NCBI GenBank assembly: GCA_951406725.2 | Contig: OX597817.1 | Span: forward strand, 61,752,001-61,816,000 | Direction: 5' to 3' | Source of the DNA: Octopus vulgaris | Taxonomy: Eukaryota | Length of the DNA: 64,000 nucleotides | Shown: positions 1,531-42,558 of the stretch, piece after piece | Layout: every line of letters begins with the position of its first letter | Numbering within the stretch: the stretch's first letter is position 1 | Translations under genes and position numbers: made by a program | The notes under the pieces: generated by a model | The model's database searches: none | The model's input: only the letters and a program-made list of their open reading frames with translations | Told to the model about the DNA's origin: nothing

Positions 1531-1736
1531 AATATTAGGGAATAAATCCAAACTTACAGGGAAAAATCAAATTTAGGATTGAATCCAATTTTATAGTAAA
1601 ATATTATATTATATTAAATTAGAGACAAAACCACTATTAGGCAAATCATACAATGAAAAACTGAAGCCAATACATAAGATTATTTAATTTATATTTAAAT
1701 ATATAACAAAATTATTAAAAAAATATAATTAATATA

Positions 1737-1802
1737 TCACTACGATCGTTTCATGGCTGTTAATTTCTTTAAATTTTCGAGTTACAGTCATTCATCAGGT
1801 GG
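1737..1802 (-). ncRNA. Putative minimal type I hammerhead ribozyme
   Basis: Minus strand: cac-CTGATGA-[atgactgt...acagccat, helix II]-GAAAC-gatc-GTA-gtg. Intact core, palindromic helix III loop, 3-bp helix I. Confidence 0.75.
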
Positions 1803-1875
1803 TTTAAATATTTATAGTGGCGAGGTTTCAACAATGGGTTCATTGTTTAAGCCTCGCCAAGATAAATATTTAAAC

Positions 1876-1940
1876 CACCTGATGAATGACTGTAACTCGA
1901 AAATTTAAAGAAATTAACAGCCATGAAATGATCGTAGTGA
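1876..1940 (+). ncRNA. Putative minimal hammerhead ribozyme (mirror copy)
   Basis: cac-CTGATGA(1879-1885)-helix II-GAAAT(1925-1929)-gatc-GTA-gtg; the C>T change leaves a U-G wobble in helix III. Confidence 0.65.
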
Positions 1941-2061
1941 TATATTAATTATATTTTTTAATAATTTTGTTATATATTTAAATATAAATTAAATAATCTT
2001 ATGTATTGGCTTAAGTTTTTCATTGTATGATTTGCCTAATAGTGGTTTTGTTTCTAATTTA

Positions 2062-2107
<46 letters not shown>

Positions 2108-5216: not shown

Positions 5217-5266
5217 TATATACATACATAGGTGAGAAAGTTGATGTGTGAAAGCACGTGGTTGAA

Positions 5267-5617
5267 TATATAGAAAATAGTAAAAAGTGAAAAAACTACA
5301 GAAGGCTTGTTTTAAAAGGTTAAAAAATATATATTTGAGTCAATATGTCTGAAGGATGTTATAAATTTTTTCCTACAATGACATAGTTTTTGAAGAAATG
5401 ACCGGTTTCGCGTTCAGCTTTTCAAATTTCTTACATCGTTCAAATTTCTTACAATGTAAGAAATTTGAAAAGCTGAACACGAAACGGTCATTTCTTCAAA
5501 AACTATGTCATTGTAGGAAAAAAATTTATAACATCCTTCAGACATATTGACTCAAATATATATTTTTTAACCTTTTAAAACAAGCCTTCTGTAGTTTTTT
5601 CACTTTTTACTATTTTC

Positions 5618-10239: not shown

Positions 10240-10759
10240 ATGTTTTCGATCTAATTTGAATTCTTTGCAATCAAATTTGAATTTTTCAATTGGTGCTCAA
10301 GCCTTGAAAAAAACTAAGAGTTAAACTTCATCGGCCGTAAGGGAATACATGTCTATCTTATCTAACTCATCTAGTAGAGCCCACCAATTGATCTCTGAAG
10401 AGTTCGATGAAATAACTCATGAACACTGCAATAGCTTCTACCAAAAGATACTTCAACATATTTACGTCGTCGACTGGTCTGAATAAGGGGAGATAATAGA
10501 AAAAGAATCATTCGTTTATTATCTCCCCTTGTTCAGACCGGTCGACATTACAGAGCATCTGTTGGTAGAAGCTATCGTAGTGTTCATGAGTTATTTCATC
10601 GAACTTTTCAGATATCAATTGGTGGGCTCTACTAGATGAGTTAGATAAGATAGACATGTATTCCCTTACGGCAAGGCTTGAGCACCAATTGAAAAATTCA
10701 AATTTGATTGCAAAGAATTCAAATTTGATGGCAAAGAATCTAAACTAGATTGAAAACAT
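10240..10759. repeat. Fold-back element (~250-bp arms) between (TTA)n/(TAA)n tracts
   Basis: gccgtaagggaatacatgtctatcttatctaactcatctagtagagcccacc (~10335) is mirrored at ~10621-10672; loop ~10498-10516. Confidence 0.9.
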
Positions 10760-37272: not shown

Positions 37273-37506
37273 GAAATTATTGTATACAGTGCTCAGGTGC
37301 ACCACAACTTGTCAAAAGTGTGTATAAAGCATATGCAGTAATGTACAAATGTCTGGAAAGTGAACAGTGTATGAGTCAGATACATGCTTGCATGTGTATG
37401 GAGGGGAGAAAATCAGGTGTATTGTTGGCGAATCTCAGGAAGCATGGAAGTTTTGAAGGATGCAGTGCTTTGACAACTAACAACTGATGCCAGCAGTTTG
37501 TTCCAT
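37243..37506 (-). mobile_element. CR1/L2-type LINE 3' end with (TTA)n tail (short copy also at ~10768-10830)
   Basis: Minus strand reads WNKLLASVVSCQSTASFK (WNxLP-like terminal motif), then UTR and (TTA)n. Confidence 0.65.
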
Positions 37507-39812
37507 GTGAAGTTTCTGCAGAATTTTCTCACCACCATGCTGTAACAACTCCGCATGTATGCCATCCATACCCGGAGACTTCCCATTATTCAACCTTGAG
37601 ACAGCCATTGCAACTTCTTCCAACTTTGGTGGTTCTGCGAGTGCTGCCTTCACAGGCAATCCAGCGATGAGATTGAGAACATCCTCACTAACTACAGACT
37701 GCTGATTCAAAAGTTCATCAAAGTGTTCTTGCCACCTTTGCAGATTTCCTTGTGAATCACGAAGAAGTTCTTTACCATCCCTGCTTCGAATTGGTGTCAT
37801 CAGGGAAGATGTCGGTCCATAAACTTCTCGCAAGAGACCATACAACAACTTTGTGTTATTGGAATCTGATGCCGCCTGTATCTCGTCAGCCTTCTTACTC
37901 CACCACGTACCCCTCATCTGAGAGAGCTTTTGCCGCACACGTGATTTTACGTCCTTGAGTTCCCTATGCAACACTTCCCTTTCCTGTGACTTTGCTGACA
38001 AATAGCGTGACAAAGTACGTCTTTTATCAGCCAATAAATCATCTATATGTTCATCATTTTCTTTGAACCAATCTTGATGCTTTCTTTGTATCAATCCCAG
38101 AACTTTTTTGCCTATATCATAAACTGACTTTTTAAGGGTCGGCCAATCCTCCCCAATATCTGCAGCATTCATTTCCTCTCGTAAAGTTCTCTTCACACTA
38201 TTGTACCTAAGACGATCAACATTCAGTCTTTTAGGCAGGGTCATCCCTGCAGCTCGGGTTTTATGTTTTGTGACTAATTTCACTTTTGCACGTACTAGGC
38301 GGTGGTCAGTCCAACACTCAGCTCCACGAAGAACACAAACACACTGCACATCCTGTCTGTCACGCACCCTAACTAGGATGTAATCCAGAATATGCCATTC
38401 TTTAGATGCAGGGTGCATCCATGTAGTCTTAAGCTTATTCTTTTGTTGAAACATGGTATTGGTAACACACAGACTCAGCTCCTCACACATCTGCAGCAAA
38501 AGCATGCCCTTACTATTACACTTCCCCACCCCATGCTTTCCAATTACAGTCCATGTGTTAAAATCCCTACCCACTCTAGCATTAAAGTCACCCAGTACGA
38601 TGACTTTGTCTGCCCGAGGGATATTTCTTATAATGCCCTTCAAAGCATGGTAGAAAGAAAGTTTTTTCGCCATCAGTATAGCACATAGTTGGAGCATATA
38701 CACTCACCAAGGTCATATAATTTCCTTTAGCCAAAGGAATTCTCATGGATATAAGACGCTCATTAATTCCGATTGGGAATTCTTCCAACTTGTCCACAAG
38801 AGTAGTCTTAACAGCAAATGCCACTCCAGCTTCTCCTCTAAGCTCTTCATCTCTCCCTTTCCAAAAGAATGTATATTTTCCACAAGATTCTGTAAGATGA
38901 CCATCTCCAGGCAATCTTGTCTCAGATAAAGCAACGATGTCAAGATCATAGCGTTGAAGCTCCTTTGCAACAAGCGCAGTCCTTCTTTCAGGACATTCAG
39001 AGGACTTGTGGTCAAGCAGTGTCCGTACATTCCAACAGCCAATATTCATAATTTTCTTTGGTTCTATCACAGTAGCATGATGACGGCCGGGTTCAGATTG
39101 TGATGCTCTGGAGCCCCTGCCGGGCCAGCCTCTTTCAGCCAATGTGGTTCCAGAGTCCTTACTGCCATTTATTTTTATACTGTTTTGGTACATCATTGAT
39201 TTTTGCTTTTTAAGGCTACAGTCAGCCATTCAGTTGAGACCCACAGCACTATCAACATGCATGAATTAGTTAATCACTTTAATCAATCCAATGTAGTTAT
39301 CGTGCAATACCTGTGCAAAAAGATTTTTTTTAAAGTGAGGGAAGGCTGTGCACTGAGTCAATCCCACTCACTAAGCAACAGCAGCCATAATCCTAAAAGA
39401 AGAACAAGTCAACATCATCGGTAACCACTGAGCCGCAGGTTTTATGTCGGAGTTATCCCAGTTACCTGAGTTTCCTTCTCCTAGAAGGATGCCCTAACAA
39501 AGGCTAGGAGTCCTTCACTCCCAATGGTTTAACCGCGCAATCGGGTATTCAGTCCAATTATTTCTATGTCCCCGCGCATGATACAGCCTTAAGCCTTAAG
39601 AAGAGAAAAAAAACCACATTTATTGGATGGCCGTTGACTCTCAAGAGTTCATCCGTCCTTTGACGGGTTTTGTTTTTTATCCTGCAAGGTGTCCAATAAA
39701 CACCCTCCTCACCAAGCAAGCTTGGTGGGGTTACCGGTTTAGTCGCCGACGACCCGACCATGCAACAGGTTGTTCTGGGTTACATGTTACCAGTAGCACT
39801 CGAAAGTGACCT
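37507..39812 (-). mobile_element. Relatively young RTE-type LINE, 5' half (5' UTR, APE, linker, start of RT)
   Basis: IGCWNVRTL, DIVALSETRL, YTFFWKG, VYAPT, LGDFNARVG, WHILDYILV, TDHRLV, GKSPGMDGIHAELL; a single frameshift near 38660. Confidence 0.93.
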
Positions 39813-42033: not shown

Positions 42034-42288
42034 CAATCACGTATCTCTCTTTCTCTCTCTCTCTATATATATATATATACACACACAGAGAAAGAGAGAT
42101 ATATAAAAATATTACTAGTAAATATTATTAGTGGTGATCGAAGGCAGGAACCATGCAAGCAAGTTTATGAATATACATATATTTATATGTATATTCTATT
42201 CTATTCCTGAGCGTTATACTAATACATCTGTTTGTTTTGTACACCACCTGTCTTCATCTTTTGTTTTTTTCGTAAACTTTCCCTATGT

Positions 42289-42548
42289 ATAGAGTGTTAC
42301 GTGTGATGTACAGAATTGAATATTGAGAAAAAAAGTCATCAGAATTTTGGAAAAAAATCTTTTTATTTCTTCATTATTATTAGGGCTTTGGGTCCTCTCT
42401 AGAACTTGTCAAATACAATATATTTGACAAGTTCTAGAGAGGAATGAAAGCGCTAATAATAAAGAAGAAATAAAAGGATTTTTTTACAAAATTCTGACGA
42501 CTTTTTTTTCTCAATATCGAATTCTGTGCATCACACCTAACACTCTAT
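42289..42548. repeat. Palindromic (inverted) pLTR at the 5' end of a Penelope-like element
   Basis: ~125-bp arms around loop 42416-42420, immediately upstream of the PLE coding region. Confidence 0.85.
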
Positions 42549-42558
42549 TCATATCTCC

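Follow-up and report, generated by a model that had tools for sequence, protein, structure and literature searches.

A palindrome in the genome of Octopus vulgaris is, as read from its sequence, a pair of head-to-head, intron-free copies of the hammerhead-bearing end of a Penelope-like element (PLE). It lies on contig C4 of the 2.8-Gb genome, in a stretch of 64,000 nucleotides (OX597817.1, positions 61,752,001 to 61,816,000 of the forward strand) that was analysed as a whole and is called the window here; coordinates without a locus label refer to it. That the palindrome originated from a PLE pLTR is close to certain. It is probably a dead-end insertion of a PLE with Hydra-type motifs, in which two intron-free pLTR copies were made from one spliced sense mRNA, likely read twice. 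The upstream promoter region, the intron and the ORF are all absent, and such an insertion would be inert.

An earlier, sequence-only reading had described a palindrome of about 460 bp with a 4-nt loop and no ORF, and this description stands: the arms (1606-1836, minus strand, and 1841-2070, plus strand) are 96.5% identical over 231 columns and flank a 4-nt loop, and the longest ORF within 1607-2070 is of 51 aa. The 8 of 231 columns in which the arms are unlike (3.5%) must be read as later mutation. The same reading had placed (TA)n on both sides of the palindrome; both runs are present, but the left run is separated from the palindrome by an 80-nt element-specific tail (1526-1605), which belongs to the insertion. 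The features of the locus are as follows.

About 1496-1525, no strand: left (TA)n, a target-type microsatellite (from the sequence; family tail ends are followed by TA repeats in 80/82 cases)
1526-1605, minus: PLE tail, a 3' extension of ~80 nt on the left arm only (one-arm tail in 40/48 family pairs)
1606-1836, minus: left arm, pLTR cDNA with an exon-1 remnant joined to exon 2 (alignment to the 5' pLTR of L108)
1738-1801, minus: type I minimal hammerhead motif, palindromic helix III intact, predicted cut 3' of 1741 (motif)
1811-1812, minus: exon-exon junction of the left arm, without the parental GT-AG intron (against unspliced copies L031-L039 and L040)
1812-1836, minus: exon-1 remnant, likely transcript 5' end (5' wall of spliced arms)
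1837-1840, no strand: head-to-head joint, the 4-nt loop, unique to the locus (1 exact genome match)
1841-2070, plus: right arm, pLTR cDNA without tail (rare 3-nt deletion in common with the left arm)
1865-1866, plus: exon-exon junction of the right arm, without the parental GT-AG intron (against unspliced copies)
1876-1939, plus: type I minimal hammerhead motif with C15.2 changed to U, predicted cut 3' of 1936 (motif)
2067-2102, no strand: right (TA)n, a target-type microsatellite (from the sequence; family short ends are followed by TA repeats in 64/70 cases)

The repeat family and its parent element

The sequence-only reading had proposed looking for further copies of an arm, for a shared palindrome centre and for a PLE ORF carrying the same pLTR; the first and the last were found, and the second was not. 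A search of the genome with an arm gave 63 matches from the best 40 of 1318 candidate places. The 170 distinct arms in the loci examined were used for analysis of ends and pairs. Of their 3' ends, 152 fall at one of two positions, a short end (70 arms) and a tail end (82 arms), and TA repeats follow 144 of these 152 ends overall. Among 48 head-to-head pairs the tail is carried by one arm in 40, by neither in 1 and by both in none, with 7 unclassifiable. This one-arm tail is the textbook shape of a PLE insertion; Craig et al. (2021, PMC8557442) describe an inverted copy that is truncated at its 5' end, together with a tail at a single end. Palindrome centres vary between loci, and the exact centre of the window palindrome occurs only once in 2.8 Gb; its 3-nt deletion is found in 8 arms at 5 loci, with different centres.

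The proposed PLE origin with inverted pLTRs was borne out by three near-full-length elements, L040, L108 and L110, which have the pLTR in common and consist of a pLTR, a 2.5-kb RT ORF, a 1.2-kb 3' UTR and a second pLTR; the ORF is broken in each of the three. The left arm and tail of the window (1814-1525, minus strand) align with the 5' pLTR of L108 with 283 identities, 7 mismatches and 4 gaps. L040, L108, L110 and L137 are partial tandems, with a pLTR in direct orientation on either side of the ORF. The layout of the parent comprises a short exon 1, a GT-AG intron of 700-850 nt and an exon 2 that holds the hammerhead and the tail, followed by an ORF with RT and nuclease motifs; in L108 the tail ends at ~1269 and the ATG is at 1328, which places the tail end ~59 nt before the start of the ORF. 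L108 and L110 (C20:10972466-11011114) are near-identical full-length partial tandems ~33 kb apart and are probably a local duplication, because they are truncated at the identical intron position. In one of the two the 5' pLTR is interrupted by an insert of 375 nt.

A protein search turned up a younger sister subfamily whose ORFs are open. Open frames of 821-862 codons occur in 12 of the 150 matches listed at >=90% identity, and four copies that were compared are 99.1-99.6% alike and ~90% identical to L108. No intact ORF accompanied the window's hammerhead variant in 39 long stretches examined, the best 150 of 10375 candidates having been scored, and three candidate spliced tandems on C12, C7 and C8 (L112, L115 and L116) hold no ORF of the element. 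The same genome also holds a more distant PLE family, at 53-56% identity, with open frames of up to 962 codons.

The predicted fold of the 837-aa protein of L131, an open member, has a mean pLDDT of 78.6, and its seven best Foldseek matches are telomerase RTs (best E 2.5e-10, TM-scores ~0.3). This protein carries DKT, KWK, a CxCx5C linker, and CxxC and CxH around a conserved E and N, and has no CCHH; the position of the RWK motif is KWK in this family and RWK or RWR in most relatives. A GIY-YIG-like pattern (VVY..YIG, R, E, N) is kept across 11 aligned proteins, and it is on such motifs that the assignment as a putative nuclease rests. By its motifs the element matches the description of the Hydra clade. 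Pfam gave nothing at the curated cut-off for 4 ORF fragments and 5 proteins, with no RT or GIY-YIG match, a sequence search of the PDB with the PLE protein gave 0 matches, and the protein homologs recovered are all entries without names (6 in one case, 2439 at E<=1e-10 in the other). The L131 ORF (L131:2909-5419) contains an Asn-rich, low-confidence linker of ~110 aa (residues 492-599) that is absent from 10 aligned relatives and resembles the N-rich inserts reported in rotifer Penelopes.

Precise removal of the parental intron

Both arms of the window palindrome lack the parental GT-AG intron, precisely, at 1865|1866 and at 1812|1811. Of the 9 loci from an upstream walk, 7 have GT..AG at the position of the join, and those 7 extend further upstream. 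The intron measures 700 nt in L040, ~850 nt in elements of the L108 type and 1816 nt in the sister element L137. Exact-pattern counts over the genome gave 172 spliced and 93 unspliced junctions for the window subfamily, and 597 spliced and 430 unspliced for the sister subfamily, whose join was predicted from the donor and acceptor of L137 before the search; these counts are lower bounds, and the spliced and unspliced patterns differ in sensitivity. Reversed-pattern controls gave 0.

At 18 places the same acceptor is joined to a second donor, which is situated in the 3' UTR. Among the first 100 spliced rows listed for the sister subfamily, 82 use the first donor and 6 a donor 4 nt further on (+4); of the remaining rows, 11 are from a variant subfamily and 1 is of another kind. 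Three donor positions and one acceptor are in use, and the exact joining of several donors to one acceptor indicates that the intron is lost by splicing rather than by deletion of DNA. Because splicing acts on sense RNA alone, a palindrome with both arms spliced must have had a sense template. That the arms were copied from spliced sense RNA is highly probable.

Both splice states occur in the genome, and the intron is still present in most full-length tandems. In L040 the 5' pLTR looks spliced, with only ~7 bases of exon 1, and the 3' pLTR is unspliced, as expected of a copy of a full mRNA. An ORF-bearing copy at L145:3446-5849 has its 3'-UTR donor joined to the hammerhead exon, with promoter region and intron gone. 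In assembled contigs from 4 of 24 listed runs, presumed to be RNA, the 851-nt GT..AG join was seen in 3/4 and the 3'-UTR join in 1/4; these joins are not counted as independent support, because spliced DNA copies exist. The acceptor lies ~10 nt upstream of helix I of the hammerhead, itself 3-4 bp long, and splicing thus leaves the hammerhead core unchanged.

A 5' wall in spliced arms

Among the first 30 spliced arms by position, all 30 have their 5' ends 15-31 nt above the junction, and all 56 distinct spliced arms end no more than 46 nt above it, three arms of the window subfamily lying at 41-46 nt. Of 30 unspliced arms, 27 extend past 46 nt, 6 of them beyond the donor. The 3'-UTR splice form served as an internal control: 9 of 12 copies extend for 72-565 nt, and 3 are without alignment. 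In the sister subfamily the wall is at 11-23 nt in 29 of 30 arms, the exception being L184, which is spliced yet runs upstream of the wall.

The transcript likely starts at this wall, which would place the start 20-45 nt 5' of the donor and downstream of a TATA-like box. A hexamer ~28 nt above the main wall is what we take to be that TATA-like element.

Probably one RNA for each insertion, and how it may be read

The two arms of an insertion agree in splice state. For the sister subfamily, pairs were taken from the top 100 rows of the spliced and of the unspliced list, which cover C1, C2 and part of C3. Of these pairs, 27 are spliced on both arms, 26 are unspliced on both and, within 15 kb, none is mixed, against ~53 mixed pairs expected if the arms came from independent RNAs. 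The zero amounts to a constraint of one RNA per insertion. The rare +4 donor occurs in two pairs, in each of them on both arms, and rare variants are held in common by 7 of 15 arm pairs, as compared with 3.8% of 1576 random pairs from the same subfamily. The template is likely to be one sense RNA.

A plausible course of events would have the mRNA read twice, from nicks on opposite strands of the target DNA. Reverse transcription would start inside the RNA at two sites, which would give the short end and the tail end, by analogy with an anole PLE in vitro; each cDNA would then extend across the hammerhead, left uncut, as far as the RNA 5' end, and the two cDNA ends would be joined head to head. 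Unspliced copies would arise from a read-through 3' pLTR, with the intron often kept, and would be those that seed new active tandems.

The second arm may instead be a copy of the first. The cDNA from spliced sense RNA would snap back at the RNA 5' end on a short palindrome and copy itself as far as the short end. Concordance of the arms in splice state and in common rare variants is explained equally well in this way, exon 1 does contain short palindromes, and in 27 of 40 pairs the short arm extends no further in the 5' direction than the tail arm does (nested 11, level 16). In the other 13 pairs, however, the tail arm is the more 5'-truncated, so that neither arm contains the other and the short arm is without a tail. 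Such pairs could also come from later one-sided deletion of a fold-back hairpin, which is what a self-copied arm would need in each of them, but in several of the 13 the 5' end of the short arm still falls at a wall-like position. The 13 non-nested pairs favour two RNA-templated cDNAs over folding back, and a self-copied arm is accordingly considered unlikely. Two RNA-templated strands are thus the preferred reading, one held with reasonable but less assurance than the spliced sense template itself.

Repeated splicing or intronless masters

If intronless arms descended from a few masters already without the intron, splicing would be an old event and not one that accompanies each insertion. The relationships among arms bear on this. 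A tree was built from 96 arms (61 spliced, 35 unspliced), with 61 truncated, 2 unclear and 11 short arms omitted. Spliced and unspliced arms interleave in both subfamilies. The splice label changes 18 times on the tree, at least 5 changes being forced by starred branches, and a single origin of the spliced state appeared in 0% of 200 bootstrap trees, a bootstrap that had not settled. The label is nevertheless clustered: the 18 changes compare with a mean of 28.8 in shuffled data, and 0 of 500 shuffles were as low. Some clades are all spliced (one, for example, of 9 rows), L184 is spliced but extends upstream, and L145 has ORF sequence with the long 3' intron removed, all as a master without an intron would have it. 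Some spliced lineages may accordingly have sources of their own. A lost intron would impose no 5' wall, though, nor account for three donor positions with one acceptor, and the first loss of the intron would still require a sense RNA. As a general account of the spliced arms, descent from intronless masters is improbable.

Hammerhead motifs and the fate of the hairpin

A hammerhead motif on each strand, with predicted cuts after 1936 (plus) and 1741 (minus), had been claimed at the outset, and the motifs are as claimed. Each strand reads CAC-CUGAUGA-helix II-GAAA-(C/U)-GAUC-G-UA-GUG, with the core CUGANGA / GAAA / UH and helices I-III of a type I minimal hammerhead, and the two motifs point outward from the centre of the palindrome. 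The accompanying claim of a palindromic helix III applies to the left copy, where it is intact; in the plus-strand copy the palindrome is broken by the change of C15.2 to U, with which the predicted dimer duplex is weakened to -8.4 kcal/mol vs -12.0. Palindromic helix III is kept in 107 of 129 pattern-selected motifs (loop GAUC in 97, AAUU in 10).

The call as a candidate ribozyme rests on motif, apparent covariation and position in the PLE pLTR. An Rfam search returned no hammerhead family in 11 matches at E<=10, only miRNA-type hairpin noise. In 18 variants chosen by hand out of 74, 86.8% of the alignment cells in the helices pair. Two-sided changes in these 18 are seen in helix II (A-U/U-A 10:4, U-A/C-G 6:4) and in the helix III palindrome (G-C/A-U 12:5), and none in helix I; the number of covarying hammerhead pairs among the same 18 chosen variants is not above that in shuffles (300 of 500). 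In isolation the motif favours another fold, at -5.9 kcal/mol vs -2.2 for the constrained hammerhead.

The full palindrome is predicted to fold as a hairpin at -314 to -327 kcal/mol. A transcript through the locus would form a long double-stranded hairpin with both ribozymes buried. The idea that the hairpin acts as a conformational switch found no support in these folding energies (-314 to -327 vs -2.2 kcal/mol, as predicted); on the same models the hairpin would be a sink. The 5' truncations do not pile up at the predicted cut, 2 of 61 lying within 3 nt of it in the window set and 0 of 3 in the sister set, and there is thus no sign of cut RNA as template. Function of the motif is likely confined to the parent RNA, in dimeric form or assisted by protein.

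The switch was part of a broader proposal in the sequence-only reading, in which the palindrome is a protein-free, retrozyme-like hairpin unit that moves as a whole in trans. The genome does hold many short palindromic copies, and pLTRs can be mobilised in trans in rotifers, according to the account in PMC3846280. A unit that moves whole would keep its centre, however, and here the centre is unique and the 3-nt deletion recurs at 5 loci that differ in their centres; in addition the tail is limited to one arm, the spliced arms are polyphyletic rather than one lineage, and the hairpin out-folds the ribozyme by >300 kcal/mol. Movement of the solo hairpin is therefore very improbable, and this part of the proposal is largely refuted. 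Least credible of all is an assembly fold-back artefact, or a MITE-type DNA transposon with long terminal inverted repeats in TA: a near-perfect palindrome between TA flanks is what either would give, but the arms are 3.5% apart, the flanks are unlike and the tail is one-sided, 48 pairs of this kind have centres that differ, elements that encode an RT carry the same sequence as their pLTR, and precise intron loss requires an RNA step.

Other repeats in and near the window

Several further repeats were observed. A palindrome with TA on both sides occupies 5236-5600. Its core, 5328-5562, matches itself at 94%, it is extended on one side by ~40-50 nt, and it has no hammerhead pattern; it resembles an insertion of a Penelope-like family unrelated to the present one. 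The region 640-1440 holds an inverted repeat pair, 722-934 and 1166-1367, of 76% identity, closer at its outer ends and with a purine-rich spacer. Palindromes at 10243-10735 and 42284-42553 appear older, with self-matches of 79% and 89%, and lie in AT-rich simple sequence; no convincing hammerhead was found in either. Broken ORF pieces of 213 and 408 aa at 37480-39229, on the minus strand, are presumably from the endonuclease region of a LINE. Outside the window, a different TA-flanked repeat with inverted copies adjoins several members of the family (L021:1290-1430 and L004:1130-1470), which suggests nested insertion of several TA-targeting families.

Relationship to known systems

The back-to-back hammerhead palindrome itself has already been described: Cervera and de la Pena (2014, PMC4209133) reported pairs of hammerheads on opposite strands, 100-700 bp apart, and linked them to truncated PLEs. 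What is new here is the splicing of pLTR copies. A literature search, incomplete in coverage (a 2003 paper on PLE introns, for example, lay outside it), found no report of spliced or intronless genomic PLE copies.

For head-to-head palindromes and for intron retention Arkhipova et al. (2013, PMC3846280) proposed antisense self-priming, the sense alternative being left open. The hundreds of palindromes spliced on both arms decide between a sense and an antisense template for these families. As likely as not, the commonest PLE product in the genome is a cDNA of the 5' end of spliced mRNA, made twice from one sense RNA by two-strand priming. If that is true, antisense self-priming is ruled out for these families. 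Intron retention in PLEs would then not be mechanistic, and would reflect which pLTR is copied together with selection for promoter-bearing copies. Palindrome centres would, moreover, map transcription start sites from DNA alone.

The closest likeness is to the Hydra clade as it is described in the available text of Craig et al. (PMC8557442). In common with it are DKT, an RWK-like motif, the CxCx5C linker, CxxC/CxH and the lack of CCHH, as well as a hammerhead in the pLTR, a (TA)n target and the same insertion shape, inverted and 5'-truncated with a one-ended tail. The differences are of size and detail. The unit here is ~5-6 kb, with a long 3' UTR and an intron of 0.7-1.8 kb, whereas members of the Hydra clade are generally <3 kb; the tail is ~80 nt, as against 30-40; the linker is Asn-rich, unlike that of the clade; and the hammerhead is unlike any Hydra one listed in that text, Hydra-1_oBim included. 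PLEs are there stated to retain introns, the cause being called unknown, whereas more than half of the junction-bearing arms here are spliced.

Penelope of D. virilis, as reported by Schostak et al. (2008, PMC2377424), also starts inside its pLTR and has an intron in its 5' UTR, with a first exon of 46 nt, compared with the 20-45 nt inferred here. Its 75-nt intron is described there as retained on transposition, whereas the intron of the octopus elements has been removed in hundreds of genomic copies. The end of the intron adjoins helix I in these elements, as it does in D. virilis (PMC4209133). The short palindromic helix III is that of the metazoan PLE minimal hammerheads described in the same source, unlike which helix I is here of only 3-4 bp.

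Non-LTR retrozymes (bioRxiv 10.64898/2026.07.22.740005) resemble the palindrome in being short and non-coding, with a type I hammerhead and an origin from a PLE pLTR. As that preprint describes them, they are head-to-tail tandems of two or more units, whereas the palindrome is a head-to-head pair that is remade at each insertion; the label retrozyme-like, which the sequence-only reading had used, does not fit an inverted arrangement of this kind.

The biochemistry nearest to the proposed mechanism is that of the Poseidon element PAc of Anolis. In the account of Frangieh et al. (2024, PMC11167929) the PLE protein nicks and extends both strands, reverse transcription starts at two internal sites that bound the tail, and the RNA is uncut. 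The octopus copies are alike in their two fixed 3' ends around the tail, in an AT-rich target and in cDNA that would run through an uncut hammerhead. The start sites of PAc lie inside the ORF, whereas here both ends fall in the 5' UTR, before the ATG.
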